A model generated the notes under the pieces. It searched no databases, had not been told where the DNA came from, and saw only the letters and a list, made by a program, of their open reading frames with translations. Below are positions 2,277 through 38,168 of a stretch of DNA of 64,000 bases, piece after piece (the stretch's first letter is position 1; the number at the start of each line of letters is the position of its first letter). Position numbers and translations under genes: made by a program. Origin of the DNA: Promethearchaeota archaeon (GTDB lineage Archaea > Asgardarchaeota > Lokiarchaeia > Sigyniarchaeales > SOKP01); the NCBI GenBank assembly GCA_030599585.1, contig JAUVNS010000001.1:256001-320000 (forward strand), given 5' to 3'.

Positions 2277-2291
2277 TATATAAAGAAAAAA
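2277..2291 (-). promoter_or_regulatory. Pyrimidine-BRE/TATA motif TTTTTTCTTTATATA upstream of the prenyltransferase-fold gene
   Basis: Read directly; divergent intergenic region; 54 nt before the ATG at 2222. Confidence 0.6.
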
Positions 2292-2415
2292 TTAGTGGTA
2301 TTAATTGAAAATTTCTTGGTTATGCCTTTAAACTTATAATAATGAAGGAAATCATTTAAATCCATTAATGAATGGAATAATACTAATTGATGATTAAAAA
2401 GAAATTTGGTTGTGA

Positions 2416-2922
2416 ATGAATATGGTTGTGCTATGGATAAAATGTCCCTATAATAATTCAGTAATAAATTTTGCTTCGAGGTTAGGTCTGATGGCTCTTG
2501 GTACCGTGGGGATAATCTTTTTCAATTTATGGGTTGCTGTCGTGTATTTGTTGTATTCTGTGTTGTTTAACTTTCTATTATTTCCGACTAAGCATTGTCA
2601 ATATTGTTATTACGCAGTAAAGGAAACTACAACCGATAGTAAGACAGGGAAGACTATTGAGAAACTATTACCTAAAGATCAATGGGTAGAATCATGTTTA
2701 GAGAAGCATGTAGAATGCGGGAAGAAATGGTCAAAAGGTTTTTACATCCTCTGGTTTGTTCCAATTATTTTATTAATCGTTTCGTTCTTCATTAGTTTTT
2801 CTGTGTTTGCTTTACTCTCTTTAATTGGCTTTATAGCAGTGTTAGCACTAATGCTGTATTATACTAGAATGAAAATCTGTCCAAGATGCGAAATTATGGA
2901 AGAATGCCATTCATCTTTTTAA
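2416..2922 (+). CDS. Hypothetical membrane protein (about 4 TM) with CxxC motifs
   Basis: ORF track; hydrophobic helices; HCQYC and CPRC motifs. Confidence 0.7.
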   Translation: MNMVVLWIKCPYNNSVINFASRLGLMALGTVGIIFFNLWVAVVYLLYSVLFNFLLFPTKHCQYCYYAVKETTTDSKTGKTIEKLLPKDQWVESCLEKHVECGKKWSKGFYILWFVPIILLIVSFFISFSVFALLSLIGFIAVLALMLYYTRMKICPRCEIMEECHSSF

Positions 2923-2929
2923 CCCTAAA

Positions 2930-3847
2930 TTGGTGAAAAAAATGGAAAAAATGAAAGCGATCGTATGCAAAAAATACGGATCTCCAGACGGTCTTCAACT
3001 TGAAGAGGTAGATAAACCTACCCCAAAGGACAACGAAGTTCTGATAAAAATTCATGCAACAACAGTAACCTTTGGGGACGCGATGCTTCGAAAGCTCAAA
3101 TTCCCTCTTAGATTAATATTTGGTCTCAGAAAAAATGGTATACTTGGGCACGAATTGGCGGGTGTAATTGAAGCAGTAGGTAAAGATGTGACAACTTTTA
3201 AGAAAGGTGACCAAATTTTTGCATCTACGGGTATGCGAGGGGGTACTCATGCCGAGTACATCTGCTTGCCTGAAGATGGACATATTGCAGTATAACCAGC
3301 AAACATGACCTACGAGGAAGCCGCTGCCGTTCCTGTTGGGGGAAATACAGCATTGGACATTCTTAAGAGGGGTAAGATCGAGAACGGACAAAAAGTCCTT
3401 ATCTATGGCGCTTCTGGAAGTGTAGGCACTTATGCGGTGCAACTTGCCAAGTACGCCTTTGGAGCAAATGTTACTGGAGTCTGTAGTACTACAAATCTAG
3501 AATTGGTGAAGTCTCTAGGAGCTGATAAGGTAATTGATTACACTAAGGAGGATTTTACCCAAAATAGTGAGAAATACGACGTTATCTTTGATGCTGTAAG
3601 AAAGCTTTCGTCCTCACGGAGTAAAAATTCGCTAAGGACAAACGGATCCTATCTCTCCGTTCGATCTTCCACAAAAGACAATGTTGAAAATTTAATTTTC
3701 CTCAAAGAACTTATTGAGCTGGGTAAGCTAAGAGCTGTTATAGATAAAACCTATCCATTTGAACAACTCCCCGATGCTCATAGGTATGTTGACAAAGGGC
3801 ACAAAAAAGGCAATGTAGTAATAACTGTGGAACATAACAGCAGTTAA
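2930..3847 (+). pseudogene. MDR-family NAD(P)-dependent alcohol dehydrogenase/quinone oxidoreductase interrupted by an in-frame TAA at 3293-3295
   Basis: ORFs 2930-3295 and 3305-3847 are in the same frame. The junction reads [14 protein letters not shown], where the family has K-P-x-N-M-x-x-E-E-A-A. GroES-like N-terminus and YGASGSVG Rossmann motif are present. Confidence 0.85.
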
Positions 3848-3931
3848 GAAATAGGGTTATCATCGTAAATTATAGAAAGAGTAAAAAAAAAATAAAAAAT
3901 AGAAATTTTGACATTCAATCAAAAGTCATCG

Positions 3932-5212
3932 TCAACAAAGCACGGGTGGACCCTTTGAATTGTAATATTTCCATAGTTCTACATTTACAAGCTCCTGTTC
4001 GTCAAGTATCTCGTTTTTGTCTGAAGCATAAAATTCTTTAGAGTTGAGTTGATGATTGGTGGTAAATTTATCTTGTTTATTGGTAATTGAGGCAACTAAA
4101 TACCCGCTTGCTTCTTTTATAAATAGAAGATGCTCTTTGCTCCCATTTAGGGAATTGTATACTTGATTAGCGTTTCCTAGTATTAATTGGACGATGTCGA
4201 CATTTTCAGGCGATTCTTCAATCGAAACTTCAATTGGATCGATAAAACCAGGGTCAAGCACGCCTAATTTTTGCATAACTTTTTTTAACAATACCGCCGA
4301 TTTTACAAGGGTTTTGAAACCAGGAACTTTAAACCTTTGAATGACTCGCCTCTCTACTTGCCGGTGAATCGTTGACATTTTAATCCCTAATTGGTCACAA
4401 ATTGCACATACGCTCACTTCTTTTTTCTGGGAGCAGAGGAGTGTAATAGAAGTCACTAATCCAACAATAACATCGTCTTTAGTGTTTTTAATTGAATCGT
4501 AAAACCTGTTTAATATCCGTCGTGATTGGTAGTAAAATGGCATACCTAATTTAAAGTGCTCACTCACTTCTAAAATCCGTTCGATTATGTATTGTTTGCG
4601 ATCGCGCTCTTGATATTCGGGCCATATGCGAATAATCGAGAATTTAAAGGCGTTAAAGTCTTTCTTTGAAATTTTTGAAACCTCTAATAGGTCTTTTTCG
4701 CGAACGGGCTTGTTATTCTCTTTGTAGTAAGCATAGATCACGCAAGGTACGAGCATTTCCGCACTTCTGTATTTAGTGCCCTTGCCTAATTGAGCGCGAT
4801 TCTCTTTAAATTTACCTAAAATTACATTAAAATCATTGAGTGAGAAACCTAAAGCGGTTAATATCCTTTTAATCTCAACCTTAGCTGTGATTAAGACATT
4901 TTCTTCAGTCGAACGAGACGCATCAATCCGACTGAGCCCTTCTAACTTGGCAGAATATTGTGATTTACGCCTTTCGGATTTGAAACCAATCTGAGTTTTA
5001 CTTAATACCGCATGTTGAACGACGTCAGCATCGTAGGGCCTATGATATTCTAACTTTTGTGCCTCTAACACTATCCCGCATTCTCGGCAAGTAAATCCTT
5101 CGTGAGTTTCCACAATATCCTGTGATCCACAGATATCACACTGGTAAAATGGATCAAACATAGAAATCGTCTTTAACGATTTTGCTTTATCCATGTTTTT
5201 GGTTGTTGCCAT
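3932..5212 (-). CDS. tfb: Divergent transcription initiation factor IIB (TFB) paralog
   Basis: N-terminal zinc ribbon CDICGS...CRECGIV, two cyclin-like repeats (SAEMLVPCVIYAYYK...EKDLLEVSKISKKDF and VSVCAICDQLGIKMSTIHRQV), plus an extra C-terminal tail of about 100 aa. Confidence 0.85.
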   Translation of the reverse strand: MATTKNMDKAKSLKTISMFDPFYQCDICGSQDIVETHEGFTCRECGIVLEAQKLEYHRPYDADVVQHAVLSKTQIGFKSERRKSQYSAKLEGLSRIDASRSTEENVLITAKVEIKRILTALGFSLNDFNVILGKFKENRAQLGKGTKYRSAEMLVPCVIYAYYKENNKPVREKDLLEVSKISKKDFNAFKFSIIRIWPEYQERDRKQYIIERILEVSEHFKLGMPFYYQSRRILNRFYDSIKNTKDDVIVGLVTSITLLCSQKKEVSVCAICDQLGIKMSTIHRQVERRVIQRFKVPGFKTLVKSAVLLKKVMQKLGVLDPGFIDPIEVSIEESPENVDIVQLILGNANQVYNSLNGSKEHLLFIKEASGYLVASITNKQDKFTTNHQLNSKEFYASDKNEILDEQELVNVELWKYYNSKGPPVLC

Positions 5213-5667
5213 TTTTTTCCAACTTTTTTATAATTTTTTTGAAAAATATCGATTATATTTTAATTACAAAGAATAAAGATCACCAGTTTGCTTTATGAAG
5301 ATATGGTTTTATGAAAAATCTCTAAAATTGTGGGATATAATCAAATGAATAGCGAAAAATAAAGCTGAATCGGTAAATAAACTTTAATTAATTCATGGGT
5401 TAATATGATAACATTCTACATGTAGAAGATTAAGCATGTATTTTTTCATCAAAATCACAATTTCGCAATTTTATTCCGAACAAGGAGAATTTTTGAATCG
5501 CAGGTGCTGAGGTTACAGCCTAAATAAGGAATATGAAGAGATTTGTAATGGAAATTTTGATTAAATACATATATTTATTTGTCTTTTAATCTGAATATAT
5601 CAATAATAACAATAGATTTAGAACTCAACTGAATTAAAGATAATTTTAATAGATTTTTGAAATTGGG

Positions 5668-5751
5668 TTAATTATCTTCGACTTTTCTTAAGTCTCCCGT
5701 TGAAAGTTCTTTATTGAAACTCACTTTTATTCTTACATTTATCTTATCCAT
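5668..5751 (-). CDS. Possible 27-aa small ORF (MDKINVRIKVSFNKELSTGDLRKVEDN)
   Basis: Hand translation; GAGGTG upstream; no recognisable homology. Confidence 0.25.
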   Translation of the reverse strand: MDKINVRIKVSFNKELSTGDLRKVEDN

Positions 5752-5842
5752 AAATTTCTTTTTAAACACCTCTTAAAATTAATGTTTAGTCTAATGAGGA
5801 AATCAAAGAAAGAGTTAATTTATCACTTTTTTTGACATTAAA

Positions 5843-5857
5843 TTTTTCTTTTAAATA
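5843..5857 (+). promoter_or_regulatory. Pyrimidine-BRE/TATA motif TTTTTCTTTTAAATA upstream of the peptidase-radB operon
   Basis: Read directly; 27 nt before the ATG at 5885; divergent region. Confidence 0.65.
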
Positions 5858-5884
5858 CATTCCAATAATAGTAAAGATATAATC

Positions 5885-6652
5885 ATGATTGAATTGTATT
5901 TTTGGCTTCTCGTTATGTTAGGGTTTTCGATGTTGGCTCAGATTTTTTACCGCTATGCCCGAACACCTGGATATAAAGCGGTGTTTAATGTCATAGCTTT
6001 CATTGGAATAGCTGTTCACGAGATGGCCCACTATACACTGGGAACATTATTCGGTGCGAATCCCAGTAAAATGCGGGTGAAATATCGAAGCGATGATAAA
6101 TCAATAGTTGCTCCCCACGGATCAGTCAAATTTCCGGAGATCCAACGATCTTCACTCTTGCAGATTTTTACGATTAGTTTTGCTCCTTTATTGGTATCCA
6201 CATTTCTATTAATGCTTTGCTTGGATGTAATCTTTAACATACAGACCGAATTGTGGGTAAAAGTGGTAGCAATAGTTTTCAGCATCTCGTTAATTATTGG
6301 CTCTGAACCATCAGGTCAAGATATCAAGCAAATAGGCTATTCCTTTCAAAGAGATCCTCGTTATTCTGCTTATCAAATATTCCTGCTAGTGTTATCAGGA
6401 GTATTGGTGTGGTTATTTGTAGATATATATTATTTTGCTCTTCCTTTTGAGGTACTTTATTATATCGGATATTTTATTGTTCTCACTTCTTTTTACTTTA
6501 CGCTGAAAGGAACTTTTTGGATAGTTGGTAGAACTGCTAAAGGAATAGCCAAGAAAATGGGAAAAGTTCAGGTGGCGAGTCCGAAATTTCTTACTCGAAG
6601 GAGGAGGTTTATACACATAAAAGACCCAAACGAAAGAGAGGTGCAATGGTAA
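5885..6652 (+). CDS. M50/M50B-like intramembrane zinc metallopeptidase
   Basis: HEMAH motif in a hydrophobic context, ISFAP motif, PSGQD third-ligand motif, multiple TM helices. Confidence 0.75.
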   Translation: MIELYFWLLVMLGFSMLAQIFYRYARTPGYKAVFNVIAFIGIAVHEMAHYTLGTLFGANPSKMRVKYRSDDKSIVAPHGSVKFPEIQRSSLLQIFTISFAPLLVSTFLLMLCLDVIFNIQTELWVKVVAIVFSISLIIGSEPSGQDIKQIGYSFQRDPRYSAYQIFLLVLSGVLVWLFVDIYYFALPFEVLYYIGYFIVLTSFYFTLKGTFWIVGRTAKGIAKKMGKVQVASPKFLTRRRRFIHIKDPNEREVQW

Positions 6653-6999
6653 ATATGAAAGGATTTTGCTTAATCGCAATAGCAGTTGCGATGTTAATGT
6701 TCTACCAGAAGGAACCATTTTACACGGTAATTATTATCGGTATTGGGGTGGTAATCTATTTCGTTTACAAGGCGAAAAAAAACGGAAATGGGTTGCTCGG
6801 AGCGTTTTTTAGCGGAAATCAGTCTCCTCAAGATAGTAGACTAGACGATTTAATTGCTTTAATGATGCTCCAACAACTCTCCTCGACTAACTCCCAGAGC
6901 AGCAACGCCACTCAACAGATTTCCGAACAAGCTCGAAAACGACGGGAAGCAATCGATAAGACTCAAAAAGAAGTGTTAGACCTATTGAGCAGTGATTAA
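6646..6999 (+). CDS. Hypothetical membrane protein (2 TM plus a short coiled coil)
   Basis: ORF track; overlaps the upstream gene (operonic). Confidence 0.7.
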   Translation: MVNMKGFCLIAIAVAMLMFYQKEPFYTVIIIGIGVVIYFVYKAKKNGNGLLGAFFSGNQSPQDSRLDDLIALMMLQQLSSTNSQSSNATQQISEQARKRREAIDKTQKEVLDLLSSD

Positions 7000-7005
7000 A
7001 ACGCG

Positions 7006-7719
7006 ATGGAGCCAAGTGATCCTTTCAACATTACTTCTCTGTTCGATCTACTAAGGGAACGAAGAATAATCTCAATTTCGGGAGCGTCAAGCACGGGCAA
7101 AACGACATTAGCGCTTCAATTAGTTGCGTCTGTACTAAGTAGCGAGGATAATATCGATGAATGTTGCGTCTGGATACAGGCTAGCGAGCAATTCCCTAAA
7201 AAGCGACTCCACACTTTTTTTAAAAGTTCTCCTGGCAAGTTCGACTACCTCGTAAAAAAAATCTTTTTATATCCAGTGACGTCTCCTTTTTTGAGTTACG
7301 AAGATCAATCAGCCTTTTTAACAACAATAGGAAGTATTATCTTACCTTTTAACACCAAATATTTAGTAATCGACAACATCTCGCACCACTTACGGCTTGC
7401 CTCTTCTTGTTGTTCTAATTTCAAGCAAAAAACTGCGCTATTAGACAGATTTTTTAGCGCTCAACTGTTTCCCCTCATTATGCGCTGTCTAAGGGAAAAA
7501 ATCGTTCTAATTCTAATACACGAGGTCTCTTTTAACCCTAAATTGGGAAAGAATCAACCATTTTTTAATAAGTTGTATTCGAGGATCAACAGCGTAAATG
7601 TTAGTTTATCGAAGCCATTTAATTCCAAGACTAAGCGTATGAAAGTCGTATCGAAAAACAACAAGATCACGAGCGAGCTGAAATATCAAATCTTAGAAAG
7701 AGGGATTTCTTTAGTTTAG
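7006..7719 (+). CDS. RadB/Rad51-paralog-like RecA-fold ATPase
   Basis: Walker A GASSTGKTT, CVWIQASEQFPKKRL (yIdtE-fp-RL equivalent), Walker B LVIDNIS, ILIHEV; no N-terminal HhH domain. Confidence 0.8.
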   Translation: MEPSDPFNITSLFDLLRERRIISISGASSTGKTTLALQLVASVLSSEDNIDECCVWIQASEQFPKKRLHTFFKSSPGKFDYLVKKIFLYPVTSPFLSYEDQSAFLTTIGSIILPFNTKYLVIDNISHHLRLASSCCSNFKQKTALLDRFFSAQLFPLIMRCLREKIVLILIHEVSFNPKLGKNQPFFNKLYSRINSVNVSLSKPFNSKTKRMKVVSKNNKITSELKYQILERGISLV

Positions 7720-7765
7720 TATTAGGTCGTTATATAAAGCAAAAATTTTGCCATCCGATTTTTCC

Positions 7766-7779
7766 TTTTCCTTTAAATA
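7766..7779 (+). promoter_or_regulatory. Pyrimidine-BRE/TATA motif TTTTCCTTTAAATA
   Basis: Read directly; 22 nt before the ATG at 7802. Confidence 0.6.
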
Positions 7780-7801
7780 GCTCTATTTTATAAGTATTAC
7801 G

Positions 7802-8188
7802 ATGATGATCAACACACCTGATCCTAAAATTTCTAATCAAATTAAATGTTCCATTTGCCGTGTCGACATTAAAGATCGCCACACATTGTATCAATCGAGC
7901 TTGAAATTGGGTGTGATCTGCAAACTTTGCCGAGAACGATTCTCTGAAGACGATATCGAGATGATCGTTAACATGTTTTTTGCGTTTGGTGGATTTTTTG
8001 GCCAATTCGAAAAATCCAAGTTTTCCATAGACGATACCATCGTAGAATTTGCAGAACAATTGGACACTAGCAACTCGACCTTTCACTTACAGAATGTGAA
8101 GATGTGGCACAAAATATTAACCCACGGTATCGCTCCTAAAGAGTTTTTAAGTGAGTTATCTACGTACATTGATCAAGGTTTTTTTTAG
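7802..8188 (+). CDS. Hypothetical zinc-finger protein (CSIC...CKLC)
   Basis: ORF track; two CxxC pairs. Confidence 0.7.
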   Translation: MMINTPDPKISNQIKCSICRVDIKDRHTLYQSSLKLGVICKLCRERFSEDDIEMIVNMFFAFGGFFGQFEKSKFSIDDTIVEFAEQLDTSNSTFHLQNVKMWHKILTHGIAPKEFLSELSTYIDQGFF

Positions 8189-8306
8189 AGAAAAAAGAAT
8201 CTTAACTGATAACATAATTTTTATATTGATTTCTATCTCACTTCTATATTAACGATAATTAAATTATGATTCATAAATATTAATCGATTTATTTTTAAAA
8301 ATCAAG

Positions 8307-8702
8307 ATGTCAGACGAAGAACTCAGTAAGCAAATTACTAAAATAGCAGTAGAAATTGAGAAAGTGGACCAGACAGCGAAACAAAAAAAAAACTACTTTA
8401 CAAATAAATGTGATGAGGAATATGATCCTAAAATCAAGGATGTTGGGGAACGGTTGCTACATCACCAAACCGAATTAAATGAACTCCTCAAAAATCTTAA
8501 TGAATTAACAGCGAAAAAGAAGGAATTACTCACTATTACAAAGAAATTGGAATCAGAATACAACTCCTTGATAAAAGAGAAGGAAAAAATCTTTAACCAG
8601 AATATTAAAGCAATTGAAAAAGAAAGGAAAAGTAAAACGAAGGACATTGATACCAAAATTAAATTACTAGAGAAAGAATTGAAAACAAGTGAAAAAAAAT
8701 AA
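8307..8702 (+). CDS. Hypothetical coiled-coil protein
   Basis: K/E/L heptad-rich sequence. Confidence 0.7.
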   Translation: MSDEELSKQITKIAVEIEKVDQTAKQKKNYFTNKCDEEYDPKIKDVGERLLHHQTELNELLKNLNELTAKKKELLTITKKLESEYNSLIKEKEKIFNQNIKAIEKERKSKTKDIDTKIKLLEKELKTSEKK

Positions 8703-8774
8703 GCTTGTAGAGATTAAAGGGATAGAACATTCTAACGGGGATTTTTTATTTATAGAGATGATTAAAAAAAAAAG

Positions 8775-9113
8775 TTAAAGAAGTTTTGTTTCGGTTTTAG
8801 GCGTTGGAGTTTTTATAACCAAGAATCGAAAACTTGCTTCAGATTCGTTTAATAACGTGTGAACGATTTTGGCCGGACTAAAAATTAATTGATCTTTTTT
8901 CACAGTTTCTCTTTCTTTTCCGATCTCGACGATACCTTCACCTTCAAGAACGTAAAAAGTCACGTCTACCGGCGTTATATGCCTTTTGAGAGCTTCACCC
9001 GGCTTTAATTCGATATGTACGATTGTTGCGTGCTCAAAATTCATTAATTTTTTCACAGCTACTTTATGTACGGTGTCCGCAATCTGAACGTCTTTTGTAG
9101 TAATAATTTTCAT
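8775..9113 (-). CDS. Cupin domain protein
   Basis: LKPGEALKRHITPVDVTFYVLEGEG...PAKIVHTLLN cupin motifs. Confidence 0.85.
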   Translation of the reverse strand: MKIITTKDVQIADTVHKVAVKKLMNFEHATIVHIELKPGEALKRHITPVDVTFYVLEGEGIVEIGKERETVKKDQLIFSPAKIVHTLLNESEASFRFLVIKTPTPKTETKLL

Positions 9114-9297
9114 TTTATTTTAACCTAAATTTTCGAGTTATTTTATGATATTCTATATAAATTGATTTACAATATAAGGTTTAAAGTGAACATCTTCGAA
9201 GCGAAACTAATTCATAATCCAATATTTAAAGAATAATTGATAAATGAAGGTTTATTCTAAAACCATTAAAAAAAAAGAAATTTGGGAAGAAAAAATC

Positions 9298-9867
9298 TTA
9301 TTTATGATATTCGATTGTTAGTTGGTTATATAGTTGTAGGTCATAGACTTCAAATGCGTCAGAAATGGAATGGCATCGGATTGTAAAATTATCTAAACCA
9401 TTGCTTTTTACATATACAGAAGACTGAGTTTGATAAGCCGACGAAATCGGATTATCAGTCATCGCAATCCTAACAAAGCTGTGATCGACAACATTATTTC
9501 TTAAAAGACGAACATAATATATCGTCGAAGGTTCAACACTATTCAGGAGTAAGAGAAGTGTAATTTTGTAAAAACCCTCCTCTATTAATTTAAAACTTGT
9601 ATTATTATTGCTTACTTCGATATAATTAGAATTATTAAACTGGTTATTGCCAACTTCAATAAGCCAGGAGTGATCAAATATGTATGGGGCGTATTCTTTA
9701 TTCGTTGCTAAATCATCCCATAATCCTACGAGAATCAGTCCACTATCTGGAGATGTGGTTCCAGGAGTAATAAGTATTTCACTCGTGACGAACATATATC
9801 CGCTTAAACCTAAAGAAGCAATAGCGATGATCCCCAAAAGAAGCATCGCACCTTTTCTTTCACTCAT
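9298..9867 (-). CDS. N-terminally anchored beta-sandwich (C1q/TNF-like) surface protein
   Basis: N-terminal TM IAIASLGLSGYMF; EEGFYKITL and beta-rich C-terminus. Confidence 0.6.
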   Translation of the reverse strand: MSERKGAMLLLGIIAIASLGLSGYMFVTSEILITPGTTSPDSGLILVGLWDDLATNKEYAPYIFDHSWLIEVGNNQFNNSNYIEVSNNNTSFKLIEEGFYKITLLLLLNSVEPSTIYYVRLLRNNVVDHSFVRIAMTDNPISSAYQTQSSVYVKSNGLDNFTIRCHSISDAFEVYDLQLYNQLTIEYHK

Positions 9868-10053
9868 GTTTTTCTATTCACTTTTTTCTTATTATTTTTA
9901 TATAGATAGTAATAACTATTGCTATTTGTTATTAATAAAGATTTCAACATTCTAAAAATAGAAGCTTCAAGCAAAAGAAAAAAAGAAATTGTTAAACGAG
10001 AATTAATAAAAAAAAAGTGGAAAGTGAAACTTTTCCATAATTGAGAATTTTAT

Positions 10054-12030: not shown

Positions 12031-12231
12031 TTTAATTTCGCCTAAAATTTATGTTAGATTATGAATAATTATCACAAACTATTATTTAACATTTTTGTTA
12101 AAAAACGAGCGATATATTAATTAGAAAGGATAAAAATTGTTTTTGAAATTATGGAATCGGGTTGTTTAAAGAATTATTCATAAATAGTCAATCCAAGTTA
12201 TATGAAGAGAGTAAAAAAAAAGAAAAAAAAT

Positions 12232-12738: not shown

Positions 12739-12816
12739 AATGATCGTTTAATATTTTATTTTTATTTTAATTGATATTTAATTAACTAAAATTAATCAAC
12801 TCATAATTTTGTTTTC

Positions 12817-12879
12817 CTTTACGGGTAAAGTTTTTTTGAAAACGACTTTTTTGGTATAAATACTTTAGCTTACCAGTAA
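12817..12879. promoter_or_regulatory. Two palindromic operator-like sites, CTTTACGGGTAAAG (12817-12830) and TTACCAGTAA (12870-12879)
   Basis: Inverted repeats TTAC-N2-GTAA in the divergent copD-like / 4Fe-4S gene intergenic region. Confidence 0.45.
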
Positions 12880-27113: not shown

Positions 27114-27137
27114 ACCATATCAGAGGCGAGCTAAAAA

Positions 27138-27806: not shown

Positions 27807-27837
27807 TAGATACAAATAATTATTTTTCAAATTCCAT

Positions 27838-29007: not shown

Positions 29008-29139
29008 GAATGTTTTAAAATGCTCTCAGATCGAGCGCTGATTATACTTATGTTTTAGAGACTTATGTTTAAGGATGAATGTTTTTTTCATCTCCAAAAA
29101 TGTCATATTTTTTAACGAAGATATCTTACAATTAAAATT

Positions 29140-30441: not shown

Positions 30442-30465
30442 AAAATAAAACTAAAAAAAAGAATT

Positions 30466-31563
30466 TTAGGTTGATTTAATTTCAAGTTTCTTGGCAAGTA
30501 TTTTAGCAAAAAGTTCTTCGTCAGTATCGGGAGGAATTTCAACTTTGTCCTTTTTAATTAATTGAATCGCTTCTTCGGGACATCTGGGAACGCAGTTTCC
30601 GCAACCAATGCATCTTCTTTTATTAACCTTGGAAATTTCATTTTTCATTTTAATCGCATCAATCTGACAAACATCTATGCACGTTCCACATCCCACACAC
30701 ATATCTGCATCAATTTGAGCAAAATAATTAGTTGTAAAAAAATCCACGGTTTTTGGAAATTCTTTTAAAGTTGTTATAATTCCACAGCAACATCCACAGC
30801 AGCTACATATGAATTTTGAATCCTTAGCGTTTTCTGCTTGGAAAACTAGGCCCTCTTCCTGATTCATCCGTAACATTTCAAGGGCTTCTTCGCGAGTTAC
30901 CTCCCTCCCCCACCCTTCATTAAGATACATACCAGCCATCTCTCCCATTCCAAAGCAAGTTTCATAACGTGAAGTAACCTTACAAGTTTCACCTCCCATT
31001 TTATGAGCTTTCCGGCAGATACATTCTATCGCCACATAAGGACCAGGATTATTGCTTACGAGCTTTTCAAGTTCTTCATATGATGGTAAGCTGTGTTCTG
31101 TTGTTACACTTTTTTCTACTGGAACCGTCCTAAATTGTGATATTTTCGTTCCAAATAGCTCCATACCAAATTCATTTCCCGCATATTCGCTAATATCCTC
31201 TAAGAATTCTGGAGTAAGTCTATTAATTTGATACTCGTACATTCCAATAACAAGATAGGCGTTTGCATAGTGTTTTTCCCCATCTACAATTTTATAATGG
31301 ATTGCCCCCTTGCTTGACATTATATCTAACTTTTCTCTCAATTCGGAAATATTCATGTCCAATTTAAATCTCTCATGAATCTTTTCTAAAGGCTCATATT
31401 TATCCGTTAACTTTGTAGCGATAACTGCTTCTTCGGGCTCAAATAAATGTTTCAATATTCTAATGCCTGCTCCGGTTTTAGAAACTGGAAATCCAATAGG
31501 ATATTTATCTAGATGCTCGCGTAAATTTTCATAAACACTTTCTAAATCTAATTTAGATTGCAT
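30466..31563 (-). CDS. 4Fe-4S dicluster (ferredoxin) domain protein
   Basis: CICR, CSCCGCCC, CVGCGTCIDVC and CIGCGNCVPRC motifs. Confidence 0.9.
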   Translation of the reverse strand: MQSKLDLESVYENLREHLDKYPIGFPVSKTGAGIRILKHLFEPEEAVIATKLTDKYEPLEKIHERFKLDMNISELREKLDIMSSKGAIHYKIVDGEKHYANAYLVIGMYEYQINRLTPEFLEDISEYAGNEFGMELFGTKISQFRTVPVEKSVTTEHSLPSYEELEKLVSNNPGPYVAIECICRKAHKMGGETCKVTSRYETCFGMGEMAGMYLNEGWGREVTREEALEMLRMNQEEGLVFQAENAKDSKFICSCCGCCCGIITTLKEFPKTVDFFTTNYFAQIDADMCVGCGTCIDVCQIDAIKMKNEISKVNKRRCIGCGNCVPRCPEEAIQLIKKDKVEIPPDTDEELFAKILAKKLEIKST

Positions 31564-31789
31564 AATAATTCACTCTATTATTAAAAATGGATTAACGAAG
31601 ATTAAGTAAGAAAGAGATGTTTTTAACATTTTTGTAACAAAAAAAAATTTGCTTTTATTCGATGATAAAAATTAGTAAATACACTCTGAAATCTCGAAAT
31701 ATGATATTTTCTATTTTTTTAAAATTTTCATTTATATAGATTCGTTTACTAGTTGGAAGTATCAAAACTACATAGTTACAACGAAAAAA

Positions 31790-33025
31790 ATGATTACGCA
31801 AGAAACAATATCTTATCCAATTATTCCATATAAGAGGTTAAGTCCGAAATCAGTAGATGAGTTCTTAGACATTTTTGAAGATGTGTTAGATCTTAATCTG
31901 GAGAAAGGGATGGAGTTAGATTTTACTATCGATAGCAAGTTGGGTTCGGACAAAATTAGCCCTACCCTATTTTTAGCGAAGCCTAAGGACGCTGTTGAGA
32001 TTGCAAATATTTGTAAGGAAGTGTACGAAGGCTCTTACCCATACAAAGAGATAGAAGACCCAGAAGAAGTGAAGAAAATGATCGAAAGCCCCGAAAACCA
32101 TTTTATTCTCTTTAAAATTGAGGAGGACATAGTCGGTTGTTTTCGGTGCGCGTTGGATTTTGAGCATTTTAAGGGTTACACAGGAGGTTTTATGGTTCGA
32201 CAAGAATATCAAGGAATTATCGATGTTACTAAATCGATTATCGGATCTTACGCGTGGATGTGGAGTACCTATAAGGACGAAATATTAATGTGGTATTGTG
32301 AGAATCGAACAGCGCACGCAGCTTCACAGTATATAACTTCTGTGTGTGGAATAAACACTGTGGCGTTCTTTCCTAACAAAGATGTCTTTTTCGATCAAGT
32401 AGAATCGGATGTAATGGGTGTAGTTTTTAGAGAGAAAGCTCTTAAGGAATATCGAGAAACTCAAAAACCCCAATTAATTCGGAATGCACTCGACAGCTTC
32501 CTTCACTGCGATAATATTTATCGACTCGGCGGATTTAACTTGGTTTGTCCGGACATTCAACTTAATTACGAAAAAATCGAGGTACTCCATAAATCTTTTC
32601 GAAGAGATGTGATCAAGGATAAATATGGTTACCAATATAACCAATTTTTTATTACAGGAACAAAATCATATTTTTCATTTCTCCATACTCCCTGTATACA
32701 GAACCTCGAGAAAACCAAATATCACGTTGAATCTTTAGAAGAACTCTATATATACTTGGAGGAATTCTTAAAAGTGATTAAAGAAAACTCAATAAGATAC
32801 AGCGAAGCTTTTGTTTCTGCACTTAATCCTGAACACCAACAACTATTTTACGAGTTCGGCTTTAGAGCGAGGGGATACGTACCGTGTTGGAGTTACAAAA
32901 AAGATGATAAATCTTTCGAGGATTACGTGGTGTTTAATTATTTCGAGGGTAGCGTTCCGAAAGCTACCTTACTTCCGGTCGGTCAAGATTTAGTAAACAT
33001 GTTAAACCTACAAATTAACATTTGA
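31790..33025 (+). CDS. GNAT-fold protein
   Basis: AKPKDAVEIANICKEVYEGSYPY, GFMVRQEYQG and CENRTAHAASQ motifs; variant motif TTTTCATTTATATA at 31725-31738. Confidence 0.65.
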   Translation: MITQETISYPIIPYKRLSPKSVDEFLDIFEDVLDLNLEKGMELDFTIDSKLGSDKISPTLFLAKPKDAVEIANICKEVYEGSYPYKEIEDPEEVKKMIESPENHFILFKIEEDIVGCFRCALDFEHFKGYTGGFMVRQEYQGIIDVTKSIIGSYAWMWSTYKDEILMWYCENRTAHAASQYITSVCGINTVAFFPNKDVFFDQVESDVMGVVFREKALKEYRETQKPQLIRNALDSFLHCDNIYRLGGFNLVCPDIQLNYEKIEVLHKSFRRDVIKDKYGYQYNQFFITGTKSYFSFLHTPCIQNLEKTKYHVESLEELYIYLEEFLKVIKENSIRYSEAFVSALNPEHQQLFYEFGFRARGYVPCWSYKKDDKSFEDYVVFNYFEGSVPKATLLPVGQDLVNMLNLQINI

Positions 33026-33642
33026 TCTCATTAACAACATTTATATATCGAATTTTATTGTTGAATTACATGGACGATATATCAAGAGACGAATATGAAA
33101 TCATAGATCTAATTTTTACATTCCTTAACACGCTGTGTATGGTCTTAACGGCATTCTTTCTTCTAAATAATCTGATAATTTCTCTTATATATAGCATTGC
33201 AGTTGTAATGTTCGCATTTGTAGTTATATACATGTGGGTAGCTCGGAACCCATTTAATATCTATCTAATTAGAGCCTTTGCTTTTAATAATTTTATCTTT
33301 TCATTTATATCGCTCATCTTTTTCTTTTCTAATTTTGCTCACGCCTTAACCGAAAATCTTGGGTACGTAGTATTCCTTTTCCCTTCAGGTTTTTATCTTT
33401 TAATTTCGTATAAATTTTCTGCAGTTACACTTCCTTATGATAAAAAGACTGGTGCTATGTTAGCCTATACTGGAAGAACTGAGGCTTCACGACTACAGTT
33501 ATTTAGAGATAATATGGAGGAAAGGAAAAATCGAGAAGAATTAGTTGCCAAACAGAAGAAAGTATTTAAATATAATTTAATCATAGTTTTAACAATATCT
33601 TTAACTCTAATTAGTCTATTAACTCTAATCTTTGGATTTTAA
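33022..33642 (+). CDS. Hypothetical membrane protein
   Basis: ORF track; 5 TM. Confidence 0.7.
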   Translation: MISLTTFIYRILLLNYMDDISRDEYEIIDLIFTFLNTLCMVLTAFFLLNNLIISLIYSIAVVMFAFVVIYMWVARNPFNIYLIRAFAFNNFIFSFISLIFFFSNFAHALTENLGYVVFLFPSGFYLLISYKFSAVTLPYDKKTGAMLAYTGRTEASRLQLFRDNMEERKNREELVAKQKKVFKYNLIIVLTISLTLISLLTLIFGF

Positions 33643-33690
33643 TTTTTTTTTTATTTAGCATTAGGAGTTATAAAATTAGTAAATTTCGTT

Positions 33691-33705
33691 TTTTTTCTTT
33701 AAATA
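33691..33705 (+). promoter_or_regulatory. Pyrimidine-BRE/TATA motif TTTTTTCTTTAAATA
   Basis: Read directly; 58 nt before the ATG at 33764. Confidence 0.55.
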
Positions 33706-33763
33706 TAATCCATTTTGGAGAATATTATCGTTTTTAATTTAAAAAAATTAAAGTGATGAAAAA

Positions 33764-34936
33764 ATGGAAATTAGTTTAGAGAAACCCATTTCAAAAGAGT
33801 TTACTGTCGCATCAACCCGTAATATTACGGAAATTCAATATGTTTTAACTGAGCTTTTATACGTTCCTGATGAGAGATTAAAACTTGTGGTTGTATTAGA
33901 TCTTGCAGATTATCTTTTAGAGAAATTTTCGAAACCAGACTATAAGATTAGCTTTTTTTATAGCACTCAGAACGGAATCTTAACGGGATTCGTAATATGT
34001 CAAATAGACGACGAGTACAAAAGTTACGGTAAGCCGTGCCCTACTTTTGGCTGGCTCCATGCTAAAAATTATCTTTCCTGTAAGAGGCTTATGAACGAAT
34101 GTGAAAATTTCGTTCGACAGAACAACTTTCGAAAGCTTAGAGGTCCTGTGAATTATCCCAAACTTATTGGGGGAATCGGTTGGCAGACCGAAGGTTTTGC
34201 TGCTCCGATGATGAGTGGAGTAGCATATAACGATCCAGGATCAAATGCTCTAGTTTACTTAAAAGAATTAGGCTTCAAGATTGACACAAAATATTCTTGC
34301 GTAGACGCTTTCGTTAAGATTTGGTCCAAAGGAAAAGAATTAGATGAAGATATTATGCTTCGTTTTTTACCGCTCGAAGAAATAAAAGCATTGAAGGGCC
34401 AAATATTGAAATTAGCTCAACAATCTTTTTATTCCATATTAGCTGACGCTTCAGGAGGTCAATCTCGGTTTGAAGAGATAATGGAAATTTTTTACCAAGC
34501 TAGCAAAAAGGTTAAAATATTAAATCCCGGCTTCGATCCCCAGACCTACGCTGACATGCCAGGCTTTTTAGAAACTTGGAATGCAGCCGATCTCGAAAAT
34601 ATCGTCTCCACGAGCATTTTTGCTTTTGATAGAGGTTCTGGAGAGCTTGTGGGAGTATTGATGGCTCAACCAAATATGTTTCAGTTGTGGGCTGATGAAC
34701 CACTTACGCACATGAACGTTGATACGGTAATTATCAAAAAAGAATACGCTGGAAGAGGTATATTTTCTGCGCTTCATAATGTTGGTAAAACGCTATCGTC
34801 TGCTGTGTACGGGTATGATTACTATGAAGGGACAACTATTTGGGCAAACAATGACCGCGCAATTAAATCGATCTTTCCCCACAGCTCCCCACTAAGAACT
34901 CACTATGTGGTCCAGAAGCGAATCTTAAGAAAATAA
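33764..34936 (+). CDS. Tandem-GNAT (YghO-like) acyltransferase
   Basis: FGWL...LRGPVN...GWQTEGF...YNDP; KKEYAGRGIFSAL; IWANNDRAI. Confidence 0.7.
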   Translation: MEISLEKPISKEFTVASTRNITEIQYVLTELLYVPDERLKLVVVLDLADYLLEKFSKPDYKISFFYSTQNGILTGFVICQIDDEYKSYGKPCPTFGWLHAKNYLSCKRLMNECENFVRQNNFRKLRGPVNYPKLIGGIGWQTEGFAAPMMSGVAYNDPGSNALVYLKELGFKIDTKYSCVDAFVKIWSKGKELDEDIMLRFLPLEEIKALKGQILKLAQQSFYSILADASGGQSRFEEIMEIFYQASKKVKILNPGFDPQTYADMPGFLETWNAADLENIVSTSIFAFDRGSGELVGVLMAQPNMFQLWADEPLTHMNVDTVIIKKEYAGRGIFSALHNVGKTLSSAVYGYDYYEGTTIWANNDRAIKSIFPHSSPLRTHYVVQKRILRK

Positions 34937-34949
34937 AATTTTATTCTTT

Positions 34950-34966
34950 TTTTTCCTTTTTATATA
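34950..34966 (+). promoter_or_regulatory. Pyrimidine-BRE/TATA motif TTTTTCCTTTTTATATA
   Basis: Read directly; 58 nt before the ATG at 35025; may double as a terminator. Confidence 0.5.
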
Positions 34967-35024
34967 TCGACTCATTTTCGATGTAAACTAAAAAAAAATC
35001 AAAGATAAAGAGAAAATTAAAATT

Positions 35025-36710
35025 ATGACAATTGCATTAGTAAAAGTATCGTGCATCAATGATCGATTAATACCACTTGGACTTGCTTGCTTACAGGCAT
35101 TTCTTAAGCACAATTTAATTCCAGTAAAGATTTTTAATTTTAGAACATCTGATTACACCCTACCTAAAGTTGTTTTTGATCCACTTATCCAGTTGAACCT
35201 AACCAATTTTATTGTGAACCATCAAGATATACCGCTTTTAATCCCTATTACGAACGATATTCTAAACAATCGGGAAGTAAACATAAGTGAGGGTTTGTAT
35301 CCAGATATCTTAAAGGATTATTCTCTGAGAATGTTCGAAAATCCCGATACGACAAAAAGCCGATTTGAAAGTATGATAAATTATTGTAAAAACACAGTTC
35401 TGGATGCGTTAAAAGAGTTTGATACACTTGGTTTCTCGCTAAACTATCTAAACATTTCTGAAACTGTTATCTCAACTTGCTTCTTAAAACTACACAATCC
35501 TAAATGTAAAATAATATGGGGCGGTCCCACCATCACGCAATCTTACGATGCCTTTAAAATATTCCTCGATAATGGTATTTGCGATGGGTTAGTTATAGGA
35601 GAAGGTGAAAAGCCATTATTGGATATTGCTCGTGGAAACGATTTAAAGGGAATTAAAGGAGTAATGAGCATAAATGAGAAAGGCATAGTTCAGTTTTCTA
35701 AGGGAGAACAAATCGATTTGGATTTACTACCCACACCAGATTATACCGATATTCCATTGGACACCTATTATCAAATCGCCTCAACATACCGATCACGCGG
35801 GTGTACGAATAGATGTAAATTTTGTGCGGAGTGGAAACTGTTTGGACCTCGATTTAGAACTCGTTCGATCGAAAAAGTCGTTCGAGATATAGAAAAAATA
35901 GTTCAAAATCACAAACCAGGGTATATGTTATTTGGAGAATCGTTAATAAACGACGATTTAGACTATTTCGAGCAGTTATGTGACGCTTTAATCGATAAAA
36001 ACTTAGATATTAAGTTTGGTACGCACTTTAGGGCCAATATCACTCCAGGTCTAGCTAAGAAAGCGAAACTAGCGGGATTCGAGGACGCTTGGGTGGGATT
36101 TGAGGCGTTTTCTGACGAAGATTTAAAAGAAATGAACAAAGGAACGAGCGTGTATCAAAACATGGAAACGATCGAGAACTTAACTCAAGCAGGCGTGAAT
36201 GTTATTGCGATGTTAGTAGTTGGGTTCAGTGATCTTGACACAGAATTAAAGAACAGCGAAAATGTGGTTAACACAATAGAATATTATTCCAACAAGAAAC
36301 GTAAAACCGAAGATGGCAATCAGGTTCAGCTCCCAATACAATTTCGCCCAGCTCCCATATATCTCGTGCCAGGTTCGTTGGATTATCAAAATAAAATAAT
36401 ATCTGACACGAAGCCATGGAAATGTACTGTAGTATCGAAACAAAATCAACTCGAGATTAAAAATCTTGAACGCGAACTAAACACAATTCCATACACATTT
36501 GAGCGCCCTATACCTAATCAAAAAGTCGCACAGTTTATACAAATAATACAAGACGCAGATCGAAAAGCAGGGTTTACTATTGGTGGGGTCACGAAATATG
36601 TCATTGATTATACGATGGAAGAACGCAGAAAAAACCGTAAAGCGCGAAAAATACAGAGAATTGGAGTGTCTGCTCAACGACTTGAACAAGATGTTGATCT
36701 GCAAATCTAA
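35025..36710 (+). CDS. B12-binding radical SAM protein
   Basis: PLGLACL, IIWGGP, GEGE and SRGCTNRCKFC motifs. Confidence 0.9.
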   Translation: MTIALVKVSCINDRLIPLGLACLQAFLKHNLIPVKIFNFRTSDYTLPKVVFDPLIQLNLTNFIVNHQDIPLLIPITNDILNNREVNISEGLYPDILKDYSLRMFENPDTTKSRFESMINYCKNTVLDALKEFDTLGFSLNYLNISETVISTCFLKLHNPKCKIIWGGPTITQSYDAFKIFLDNGICDGLVIGEGEKPLLDIARGNDLKGIKGVMSINEKGIVQFSKGEQIDLDLLPTPDYTDIPLDTYYQIASTYRSRGCTNRCKFCAEWKLFGPRFRTRSIEKVVRDIEKIVQNHKPGYMLFGESLINDDLDYFEQLCDALIDKNLDIKFGTHFRANITPGLAKKAKLAGFEDAWVGFEAFSDEDLKEMNKGTSVYQNMETIENLTQAGVNVIAMLVVGFSDLDTELKNSENVVNTIEYYSNKKRKTEDGNQVQLPIQFRPAPIYLVPGSLDYQNKIISDTKPWKCTVVSKQNQLEIKNLERELNTIPYTFERPIPNQKVAQFIQIIQDADRKAGFTIGGVTKYVIDYTMEERRKNRKARKIQRIGVSAQRLEQDVDLQI

Positions 36711-36795
36711 TTCTTATTTGAAAAAAAAATATAACTCAAGAGCTATCACTAAAAATTTAAATAAAAATCTATCATTATCAAAATTGGTTATAAAG

Positions 36796-37194
36796 ATGTC
36801 GAAACCAACAAAAGAAGACGCAGCATTGTTACTCCAATTATTGTCGGTATTTGCTGCGAACGAAAAAAATAATATAGCTGCCAACTGGGTCTTTGAAAAA
36901 CTTCACGAAAAGGATTACGATGATTTCAAAACCAAGTATCCAATGGGAAGTGAAGGATATAAAAACCTCGCAAGATTTGCTAGCAATGGAGAACTTATAG
37001 GTACGCTTGTTAACCAGGAACTTCTTAGTGAAGATCTAGTTTTTGATTTATGGGGTGGGATGCTTTGGGAAAAAGTTGAACCAATTCTTCTTGGTATGCG
37101 AAAAGAAGCAAATATGCCTAGATTATACGAAAACTATGAAGTTTGCGCTAAGAAATATCAAACTTGGGCCGAGAAAAATCCTCCTAAAGTTTAA
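36796..37194 (+). CDS. DUF4760-like hypothetical protein (true start probably ATG 36796)
   Basis: MSKPTKEDAALLLQL...ELIGTLVNQELL...YENYE. Confidence 0.7.
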   Translation: MSKPTKEDAALLLQLLSVFAANEKNNIAANWVFEKLHEKDYDDFKTKYPMGSEGYKNLARFASNGELIGTLVNQELLSEDLVFDLWGGMLWEKVEPILLGMRKEANMPRLYENYEVCAKKYQTWAEKNPPKV

Positions 37195-37325
37195 AAATTC
37201 AATATTAAAGAAATTCTTTTTTTTTTTTTTATCAAAATTAATTTAATTCTTTGAATGGTATAAATTTATTAAGCGTAAATTTATTTTCATTATTGCTATA
37301 TTTCTTATTTAGGTGATATGATTAA

Positions 37326-37586
37326 ATGGATGAAATTACGGGAATTCTTAGCGTTAAAATTGCACGAGTCGGAACCAAATCTGAAGGGCCTGATTATTAT
37401 ATTAAACCTCTGGATGATTATGCAAATAGATGGTCAGAAATTCTTGTATGGAAAAAAACTCATTTATGGGAGAACGATCCTGGATTGCATAAGTTTATAG
37501 ATAAAAAAGTGCTAATACTTGGCGAGATAATTGAAACAAAGAGTACAATTACCGTTGAGTATGAATTCGTTGAAGTTTTAGATTGA
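37326..37586 (+). CDS. Hypothetical small protein
   Basis: ORF track; AGGTGA SD upstream. Confidence 0.65.
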   Translation: MDEITGILSVKIARVGTKSEGPDYYIKPLDDYANRWSEILVWKKTHLWENDPGLHKFIDKKVLILGEIIETKSTITVEYEFVEVLD

Positions 37587-37640
37587 ATATTTATTTTATT
37601 CAAACCAAAGATGTAAAGAACTGAAAAATAGCTTAAAAGA

Positions 37641-37865
37641 TTAAGCTTTTATTTTTTTGAGTTTATGAAATTTATTTGAGTAATTTTCTTTATAAGTTGA
37701 ACCTTGTTTAGTTTTACGTTCTCTCAGAATTTCCTTTACCATTGCTGCACTTCCACCCTTTAAAAACAATTTAATGAATTTTAACTCGTTCACGCTTATA
37801 TTTAGCGATTGTAAAAATTCGGGGTGCCGATAATTCCCCCATTCTATATTTCGATTTTTTTTCAA
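37641..37865 (-). CDS. Hypothetical small protein
   Basis: ORF track; overlaps 37862-38050. Confidence 0.55.
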   Translation of the reverse strand: MKKNRNIEWGNYRHPEFLQSLNISVNELKFIKLFLKGGSAAMVKEILRERKTKQGSTYKENYSNKFHKLKKIKA

Positions 37866-38050
37866 GTAATTAACCTCTTTTTTGCGTATTTTTTCACCAT
37901 TTTATCCCAATTAACCGAATCAAGACAGCTGGGCATTAGAAAATCGCCTATTGAGGGCGAAATTCTGTTCGATTGGAAATTTTCTTCATAGATATAGCTA
38001 AAATTATTATCTTGATCAATATTCTGTTTGTAGATATCTAAACACCTCAT
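37862..38050 (-). CDS. Hypothetical small protein
   Basis: ORF track; preceded by the special motif. Confidence 0.55.
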   Translation of the reverse strand: MRCLDIYKQNIDQDNNFSYIYEENFQSNRISPSIGDFLMPSCLDSVNWDKMVKKYAKKRLIT

Positions 38051-38102
38051 ATTTTTTAATATTAAATAAGCTTGAGTAGTTAAATATCTAAAATTATGAA
38101 GT

Positions 38103-38168
38103 TATTTAAAGAAAAAGTGTAATTTCTTAATTTTTTCCAAATCTGATGCGTGATTTTTCTTTTATATA
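38103..38168. promoter_or_regulatory. Back-to-back pair of pyrimidine-BRE/TATA motifs: TTTTTCTTTAAATA (minus, 38103-38116) and TTTTTCTTTTATATA (plus, 38154-38168)
   Basis: Read directly; divergent region; each motif points toward its own gene. Confidence 0.7.

Follow-up and report, generated by a model that had tools for sequence, protein, structure and literature searches.

Does an archaeal TATA box preceded by a run of T ending in C mark a second class of promoters, and which protein would read it? The question is raised by a 64,000 nt stretch of DNA from a Promethearchaeota archaeon (the window; positions 256001–320000 of the 411-kb contig C20 of genome G000), in which 17 such sites had been reported upstream of genes. 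The initial annotation took them for a second promoter class defining a sigma-factor-like regulon of a non-housekeeping transcription factor B (TFB). We found that the element is a genuine, discrete and strand-specific core-promoter feature located at the position of the TFIIB recognition element (BRE), and that it is private to one family of accessory islands, namely the one on C20 and its homologues on further contigs and in related species of the genus. The notion of a private regulon with a candidate private TFB was thereby upheld, that of a genome-wide class was not, and the reader had been no more than inferred. We consider it probable that the motif is the core promoter of the accessory island, read by the island's own TFB and switched as a cascade.

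The pyrimidine element and its promoter geometry

Genome G000 is a bin of 52 contigs and 4.85 Mb with 33% G+C. Genes were called with a hexamer-based caller trained on long open reading frames (ORFs), which gave 4384 genes at 87% coding density, with intergenic DNA of about 78% A+T; all results on upstream regions depend on these calls. Sites were scored with a position weight matrix (PWM) built from the genome-wide sites with a T-run, C and TATA box, and a site of at least 14 bits was counted as strong. The distance to the gene was taken from the last base of the TATA box to the start codon.

All 17 reported sites were present within 1 nt of the coordinates given for them, and each was oriented toward its gene (Table 1). 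Fifteen scored between 14.5 and 20.8 bits, the other two being the sites reported at 14774 (13.8) and 31725 (9.4). Their placement upstream of genes held, while the reported distances of 18–60 nt became 19–63 nt after correction of two start codons. The back-to-back promoter pair at 38102–38168 was real. The count of sites in divergent regions, put at nine or more, came to 8 of the 17 by our gene calls, and a supposed ordinary purine BRE upstream of 12030 turned out to be a palindrome, TTAACA-N4-TGTTAA.

The exact pattern TTTTTCYTTTAWAWA had four matches in the window, compared to 0.06 expected. When up to two mismatches were allowed, 45 matches were found, compared to 19.7 ± 4.5 expected. Each of these counts was reached in none of 100 shuffles. 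Genome-wide, the sites read [A/T][T] T4-5 C(Y), fused directly to the TATA box TTTAWAWA. This TATA box was found in all sites and agrees with the usual archaeal consensus (about TTTAWATA). A purine- or A-rich BRE was not present, the spot immediately upstream of TATA being occupied by T4-5 C(Y).

We compared every YTTAWAWA located 15–80 nt upstream of start codons in forward and reverse orientation on the same DNA. TTTT with a C at −1 or −2 before TATA was found 57 times in forward and 10 times in reverse orientation, while TTTT lacking the C occurred 23 times forward and 26 times in reverse. TTTTTC, TTTTCC and TTTTCT were by far the commonest hexamers before TATA. Since C-bearing T-runs were enriched in forward orientation and C-less ones were not, we concluded that the C and not T-richness is selected, and this selection counts against an effect of terminators or of base composition.

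Among the 120 exact sites of the genome, 68 were intergenic and pointed at a start codon within 120 nt. The spacing between site and start codon was bimodal genome-wide, with values of 20–29 and 40–69 nt. At leadered sites (n = 69) a pyrimidine was present at +21 in 74% and an A at +22 in 72%, with G in no more than 3%; control matches in coding or reverse context (n = 221) had 40% A and a flat profile. At the short-spacing sites the ATG itself was located at +22 or +25, which indicates leaderless mRNAs. Transcription is predicted to start at a Y-A initiator 21–22 nt after TATA, and the mRNAs would be leaderless or carry leaders of 15–40 nt. Judged from the sequence, such a geometry matches an archaeal promoter whose TATA box is centred near −26.

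Less specific approaches did not recover the element. A de novo expectation-maximization motif search of all upstream regions with the seed TTTAAATA converged on generic poly-T. Composition by position from the start codons revealed only a Shine-Dalgarno-like G-rich signal without a fixed TATA, and anchoring on start codons was dropped for this reason. Counts of the exact 14-mer against its backwards control in 40 relatives were insensitive: they amounted to 89 versus 17 in G000 and 67 versus 30 in G016, and to 18 versus 23 in G015 despite a clear cluster of PWM sites in the island of that genome. Because of this insensitivity, the counts were not used to judge co-occurrence with the factor described below.

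Restriction to one island family and conservation

The sites recognized by the PWM were clustered at C20:234,453–295,365, along contigs C12 and C49, at C9:326–338 kb and on small contigs. To avoid circularity, paralogues of the island were defined by homology alone (at least 50% identity to proteins of the C20 island). A strong element was present before 22 of the 54 transcription units of the C20 island and before 29 of 54 paralogue units elsewhere (41–54%), compared to 60 of the 3221 remaining units of the genome (1.9%), roughly half of which were on island contigs. Inside the C20 island the element accompanied 20 of 26 units whose first gene is shared with other islands and only 3 of 28 unshared units (Fisher p = 1e-6). 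The unshared genes, which are interleaved with the others, include Alba, Fe-S proteins, alcohol dehydrogenase (ADH) fragments and a block at 8.3–14.7 kb.

Some T-run-C promoters of 17–20 bits and correct placement were located outside the recognized islands (C35:89565, C24:401670, C32:157373, C34:243754 and C22:118260). The genes C22_118348 and C34_243843 are distantly paralogous to genes of the island, and C32:147.8–157 kb, where pieces of island genes were found, may represent a decayed island.

We also compared 60–80 kb around the gene for a TFB-like protein of the island in the genomes G002, G015 and G017, and in G038 from another family. Strong sites numbered 18 in G002, 14 in G015, 13 in G017 and 2 in G038. 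The element was present before the same unit starts in G002, G015 and G017 and on C12, C49, C52, C23 and C6, with proteins that were 27–90% identical (scores in Table 1). Operon-internal genes consistently lacked the element in all copies compared.

At ATT 14844, taken as the corrected start of the RadA-like gene on C20, the C12 and C49 copies read ATG, and the ORF 14844–16082(+) is open in frame from this ATT.

The island-encoded TFB-like protein and its rivals as candidate readers

The TFB-like protein of the island was assigned to the TFB/TFIIB family by several lines of evidence. Pfam recognized a TFIIB zinc ribbon (PF08271, E 6.7e-5, below the curated cut-off), the four Cys of which are conserved among full-length orthologues, and profile searches gave a weak match to the ribbon of P. 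furiosus TFB (1pft) and a correctly placed match to TFIIB cyclin repeat 1 (E 0.006). The Pfam TFIIB family PF00382 gave no hit in hmmscan of the protein, and a genome-wide search with it found the ten canonical TFBs only. In the AF2 model, core residues 100–320 had a pLDDT of about 80–90. Foldseek aligned this core to P. woesei TFB (1d3u_B; TM 0.81, rmsd 3.2 Å, 206 columns) and to 1ais_B (TM 0.78), and TFIIB and Brf2 also matched. According to the model, two cyclin-like repeats form a core for binding of TATA-binding protein (TBP) and DNA. A tail of about 100 aa at the C-terminus ends in a conserved KGPP.

The BRE is read by the helix-turn-helix (HTH) that ends repeat 2 of TFB/TFIIB, and this HTH enters the major groove on the upstream side of TATA (PMC4581349). 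The recognition helix of this HTH is IKMSTIHRQVER in the island protein compared to VTEVTLRSRYKE in all 10 host TFBs, which read VTE(V/A)T(L/I/V)R.R(Y/F).K; the island protein does not have this canonical helix. The canonical V and R, which we take to correspond to the BRE-contacting V283 and R286 of human TFIIB, are replaced by S and H in the island protein. Residues M279, S280, T281, I282, Q285 and E287 of its helix (MSTI-Q-E) are invariant in 18 orthologues that are 38–84% identical overall.

The ten canonical TFB genes and three TBP genes of G000 all lie outside the island. The TFB-like gene was present in 22 of the 24 genus genomes sampled and in every island examined, and it is the sole transcription-factor-like gene for which the latter holds. 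The most plausible reader is a non-housekeeping member of the TFB family as had been suggested, but the candidate is a far more divergent, island-encoded TFB and not one of the ten canonical paralogues.

The upstream region of the TFB-like gene itself lacked the element, with PWM scores of −7 to 2 in all 8 copies scored. It has a different promoter with a conserved box (Table 1), which was found on C20 and C49 and in seven other genomes of the genus, with a variant in G011; it was missing on C12. As this promoter is different and lacks the element, a two-step cascade is likely. A wider conserved block (...CAAATCTTMAAATAGCAAACTGGTGATCTTAATT...) at 5240–5300(−) was present in 10 of 15 copies in the genus genomes examined and may serve as the operator for the switch. 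In a second subgroup (G001, G006, G015 and partly G023) a different conserved upstream block was found, also with GTGATC.

As to the protein that binds the element and the order of events, we infer the following. TBP would bind the ordinary TATA box, and the pyrimidine element, placed where the C-terminal HTH of a TFB reads the BRE, would be read by the island TFB and not by a host TFB. The island TFB would have kept the zinc ribbon and both cyclin repeats and would use its rewritten recognition helix for this purpose. It would be made by the host machinery from its different promoter and would then turn on about 20 island transcription units together, like the sigma factor of a phage or of an integrative and conjugative element (ICE). 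The island with its spare recombination and repair genes moves as a block between chromosomal sites within the genus.

Alternatively, the element could be a real promoter signal of the island that is read by another protein, either a host TFB or TBP paralogue or a separate activator, the island TFB-like protein having a different role, for example that of a trans-acting factor comparable to Sulfolobus TFB3, a decoy or a repressor. We regard this as unlikely. The genome does offer 10 canonical TFBs and 3 TBPs, but the ten TFBs all keep the canonical recognition helix, so that none of them looks adapted to a pyrimidine element. One canonical TFB gene (C15:40763–41704) is flanked by two motif promoters and about 30 matches of the element lie outside islands, whereas the TFB-like gene is the only transcription-factor-like gene that recurs in every island examined. 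A precedent is TFB3, a TFB paralogue that acts as an activator without taking the place of TFB (PMC7289017). For a separate activator, the short and asymmetric element in fixed register with TATA resembles a BRE and not a typical operator.

It is far less probable that no specific protein recognizes the T-run-C and that it represents a structural or A-tract-like element or an oligo-T terminator of the gene before it, brought next to the TATA box by the compactness of the island. Archaeal terminators are oligo-T runs, intergenic DNA is A+T-rich, and 9 of the 17 sites follow a gene on the same strand, one of them after a spacer of only 41 nt; but no terminator is expected at the 8 sites in divergent regions, T-runs lacking the C showed no orientation preference, and the element is absent from the unshared interleaved genes of the island and from 98% of the other promoters of the same A+T-rich genome. 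An artefact of ancestry or assembly, with the sites as copies of one duplicated sequence or as normal promoters of a contaminant, is hardly credible in spite of a bin contamination of 8.9%, of the higher G+C content of C12, C49, C6 and C51 and of some near-identical flanks recurring between contigs, because the island of the window lies inside the 411-kb contig and is syntenic together with its flanks in G002, the sequences around the 14-nt element are unrelated among different genes within one island, and on island contigs the element is found only at genes shared between islands.

Several observations weigh against reading by the island's own TFB. Factor and element are linked by co-location and the changed helix. 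Strong sites were lacking at 6 of the 26 shared units. About 30 good matches were located outside the islands, some with 19–20 bits (C35:89565, C24:401670); they could be chance matches, satellites of the regulon or a sign of reading by a host factor. Members of the family share a conserved B-reader region (LEYHRPYD...KTQIG) that cannot be aligned with host TFBs, and for this reason the competence of the factor for initiation is putative. The extra island copies (C12, C49 and further contigs) may stem from relatives in the same bin; since such copies would act as independent orthologues, the promoter result is unaffected. Finally, the factor of G038 has an STVY-type helix resembling those of paralogues on C9 and C10 (see below), yet the C-type element is absent there, and helix sequence alone consequently does not predict the motif.

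The cluster of this sister family (G038:C1:1729000–1787000, L031–L034) has similar gene content, and by eye many of its promoters read TTTG-N-TTTTAWATA. Its factor is 24% identical to the island protein, with the helix ITASTVYSHIK. Of two patterns defined post hoc, TTGNTTTTAWAWA had 4 of its 56 hits in the G038 genome within the 36-kb cluster, about 8-fold over expectation, and TGRTTTTAWAWA had 4 of 85 hits within 45 kb. Enrichment in the cluster was 4- to 8-fold on four hits only, which is suggestive of a T-run-G variant. More tentatively than for the island's own TFB as reader, we propose a relocatable Loki-type module for recombination and repair with orthogonal initiation: its own TFB would read a pyrimidine BRE that is ignored by host TFBs, the module would be silent until this TFB is made and would work after transfer to a new host, and factor and element appear to change together between families.

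Further proteins and promoters related to transcription factors were seen in G000. Longer TFB-like proteins (484–619 aa) are encoded in a small cluster of T-run-C promoters at C9:326327–327781(−) and C9:334104–335963(−), and at C10:6298–8076(+), the C10 copy having a long N-terminal zinc-ribbon array. They are 22–26% identical to the island factor, have QS(S/T)(L/I)(H/Y) helices and are located among motif sites, and two of their genes have the element in front. The TBP genes form a tandem pair at C9:164753–166047(+), with a third at C24:314748–315269(−); a strong T-run-C promoter (19.5 bits) is located at C9:168384, 2.3 kb downstream of the pair. In the island, 21843–22061(+) encodes a 72-aa stand-alone zinc-ribbon protein with weak matches to TFIIB/RPB9-type ribbons; this gene has an A-rich BRE and a leaderless-type promoter and is not shared with other copies of the island.

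The island, its location and its relation to known systems

Syntenic paralogous copies of the island were found by all-against-all protein comparison on C12 (about 8–77 kb) and C49, with fragments on C52, C23, C6, C16, C19 and C51, at 57–96% amino acid identity. Orthologous islands were present in G002, G015 and G017. By Pfam, the recombination and repair genes comprise a RadA/Rad51-like recombinase, a KaiC/RadB-like ATPase, a FEN1/XPG-like nuclease, an OB-fold RPA-like protein, Hel308-like and Hef-like helicases and an HhH protein. Other genes encode a ThiF-like enzyme, radical-SAM enzymes, an Arf/Ras-like small GTPase and a prenyltransferase-like protein of 990 aa, and many island proteins had no family. 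The set of co-located genes marked by the motif indeed includes the RadA-like, RadB/KaiC-like, FEN1-like, RPA-like and small-GTPase genes, as annotated initially. An M50 peptidase was not found, the gene 19922–20938 being weakly M29-like and without motif, and Pfam did not reproduce the pilin and lipid-enzyme labels. More canonical chromosomal paralogues exist elsewhere, such as RadA on C27 (44%) and FEN1 on C32 (33%). As several of the repair genes have such separate paralogues, the island represents a spare set.

Table 1. Features of the island in the window: promoter sites, candidate reader and control region.
Feature	Position	Strand	PWM score (bits)	Distance to start codon and remarks	Scores at orthologous sites (bits)
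Island portion in window	1..39380	.		whole island C20:~234,046–295,380 (~61 kb), beginning ~22 kb left of window	
Promoter, operon from 990-aa prenyltransferase-like protein leftward to Hef-like helicase	2277..2291	-	19.2	54 nt to ATG 2222; divergent	20 (G002, C49); 10 (C12)
Divergent TFB/TFIIB-family protein, 426 aa, candidate element reader	3932..5212	-		zinc ribbon and two cyclin repeats predicted	
Conserved box ACTGGTGATC just downstream of TATA-like TTCATAAAG, upstream of TFB-like gene	5278..5287	-		promoter without T-run-C element	
Promoter, operon 5885–7719 (255-aa and 117-aa proteins, KaiC/RadB-like ATPase)	5843..5857	+	19.1	27 nt to ATG; exact match	17–20 (G002, C12, C49, G017)
Promoter of 7805–8188 (127 aa, small island protein family)	7765..7779	+	20.2	25 nt to ATG; near leaderless	19–20 (G002, C12, C49, G015)
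Promoter of RadA-like gene	14773..14787	+	13.8	56 nt to ATT 14844; annotated ATG 14934	19 (C12, C49)
Promoter of 19392–19718 plus 18365–19402	19755..19769	-	15.9	36 nt to GTG 19718 (corrected start)	14–20
Promoter of 21088–21312 (74 aa)	21049..21063	+	18.4	24 nt to ATG; exact match; leaderless type	15–19
Promoter of 21330–21701 (123 aa)	21743..21757	-	17.2	41 nt to ATG	15–18
Promoter of FEN1/XPG-like gene 22236–23336 (Pfam XPG_I, XPG_N)	22201..22215	+	14.5	21 nt to ATG	13–18
Promoter of 23378–24034 (218 aa)	23344..23358	+	14.7	19 nt to GTG	
Promoter of RPA-like OB-fold gene 24128–25057	24070..24084	+	20.8	43 nt to ATG	17–20 (six copies)
Promoter of 25177–25842	25135..25149	+	16.6	27 nt to ATG; G variant TTTTTTG	16–17
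Promoter, operon 26580–29007 (177-aa protein, Arf/Ras-like small GTPase, 384-aa protein)	26514..26528	+	20.2	51 nt to ATG; exact match	17–21
Degenerate promoter copy before 31790–33025	31724..31738	+	9.4	TTTTCA, CA variant	17–20 (counterparts before homologues on C12, C49, G015; 20 on C49 and in G015)
Promoter of 33764–34936 (390 aa)	33691..33705	+	19.1	58 nt to ATG	18–20
Promoter of radical-SAM gene 35025–36710 plus DUF4760	34950..34964	+	16.8	60 nt to ATG	16–17
Promoter of small genes 37862–38050 and 37641–37865	38102..38117	-	19.9	52 nt to ATG; divergent; half of back-to-back pair	
Promoter of 38232–38582	38154..38168	+	17.6	63 nt to ATG; exact match; other half of pair	20 (C12 homologue)
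Extra weaker site before TPR gene 38885–39277, island right edge	39366..39380	-	15.1	T-run without C; absent from earlier list	

The RadA-like protein (14844–16082, +) has an HhH domain at the C-terminus plus a short one at the N-terminus, and its counterparts on C12 and C49 each consist of two overlapping ORFs, owing to a frameshift or a programmed shift. The adjacent ORFs 2942–3295(+) and 3305–3847(+) are separate halves of a zinc alcohol dehydrogenase (ADH_N and ADH_zinc_N), with relatives of about 310–350 aa and 55–67% identity on C1 and C45; the split ADH is probably a broken cargo gene. The palindrome mentioned above was found at 12086–12101(−), 31623–31637(−) and 50424–50439(−), and also at C9:~325988, one copy having TTACA. 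It overlaps a TATA-like TTAAATA and is located 49–58 nt upstream of the unrelated genes 10054–12030, 30466–31563 (Fer4) and 48829–50373; from its arrangement it looks like the operator of a small separate regulon.

The location of the island differs between genomes. In G002 it adjoins the same left-flank genes as in G000, and G014 probably has it at the same site. G015 has a 44-kb insert between the orthologues of the G000 genes C8_166536 and C8_167355, and G017 a 21-kb insert between those of C26_163223 and C26_164270. In G000 itself, the two genes of each pair are separated by only 107–166 nt, so that these loci represent empty sites. Proteins of the host flanks are 60–80% identical between species, while most island proteins are 30–55% identical. 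From the varying sites and the empty sites we concluded that the block relocates or is exchanged. The right-flank gene 42543–43916 had no orthologue in five genus genomes, and the empty site of the G000 locus therefore could not be reconstructed. Contig C12 gave no terminal overlap that would indicate circularity, and its flanks have twins of about 90% identity on C38 and C51.

The view of the island as a virus or ICE was rejected. Integrase or recombinase searches of the genome gave PF00589 hits only on C31 and C32 and none for PF00239. No tRNA genes were found at the island borders, where border repeats were not searched. Ten unannotated island proteins had no PHROG match, the TFB-like protein had no relative in IMG/VR contigs, and Pfam analysis of about 60 island proteins revealed no capsid, terminase or VirB4. 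We call the block a relocatable accessory island and not a proven mobile element.

In its layout the island promoter is similar to the canonical archaeal core promoter (purine-rich BRE, TATA and initiator; 1D3U), with the usual TATA box, a 6-nt element directly upstream and Y-A about 22 nt downstream, and the candidate reader likewise has the predicted TFB fold with the HTH at the end of the second cyclin repeat. Unlike the canonical BRE, the element is a T-run ending in C and, as written, the complement of a typical GAAAAA-type BRE; unlike in host TFBs, the recognition helix of the candidate is changed at nearly every position.

Alternative usage of TFB and TBP is established in haloarchaea, and in Sulfolobales TFB3 activates a DNA-damage regulon without a core DNA-binding domain, acting together with TFB1 (PMC7289017). 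The cell-cycle regulon of TFB2 from S. acidocaldarius is reported to have near-identical TATA boxes and similar BREs with different spacing (bioRxiv 10.64898/2026.09.06.749720). Like these specialized paralogues (TFB2, TFB3 and those of haloarchaea), the island protein would be an extra TFB-family protein for a subset of genes, and its target set, as for TFB3, would be rich in genes for DNA repair and recombination. Unlike TFB2 and TFB3, it combines a full core with an element that is clearly different in sequence, and its putative regulon is one relocatable physical island.

TFB homologues are also present on thaumarchaeal ICEs (PMC6563490) and on the Asgard elements 10H_0, 7H_42-like elements and the wyrdvirus WyrdV1, the 7H_42-like elements having a Rad51-like recombinase and nucleases as well (bioRxiv 10.1101/2021.07.29.453957). 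As in these mobile elements, an accessory DNA block of tens of kb carries its own TFB homologue. The mobile elements differ, in a comparison based on their descriptions, by having no reported cognate promoter motif, and, unlike ICEs and viruses, the island yielded neither an integrase, capsid, terminase or conjugation gene nor a PHROG match. There is also a likeness to the bacterial alternative sigma factors of phages and integrative elements, since the island would encode an initiation factor that has its own promoter code, turns on the island genes as a unit and depends on a host-type promoter for its own expression. The two differ in protein family, TFB acting with TBP and not sigma with −35 and −10 boxes.

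Literature searches, within the library covered, did not turn up a promoter class of this kind for Asgard archaea. New is the combination of a full-core TFB with a rewritten helix, a different element at the BRE position and a defined relocatable target set. Promoter choice by alternative TFBs is a long-standing idea for archaea, and to our knowledge clean pairs of factor and element have been lacking, the published cases showing similar BREs or factors without a DNA-binding core. The case presented here, from the lineage that is closest to eukaryotes, joins a sharply different BRE-position element, a TFB with a correspondingly rewritten helix and a defined set of about 20 target units. If our view of the reader is true, factors of the TFIIB family would be re-codable like sigma factors, separate control of the spare set of recombination genes would be explained, and orthogonal promoter-factor pairs would become available for archaeal genetics. 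If factor and element also change together between families, these islands would offer a natural series of orthogonal promoter codes of archaeal or eukaryote-like type.

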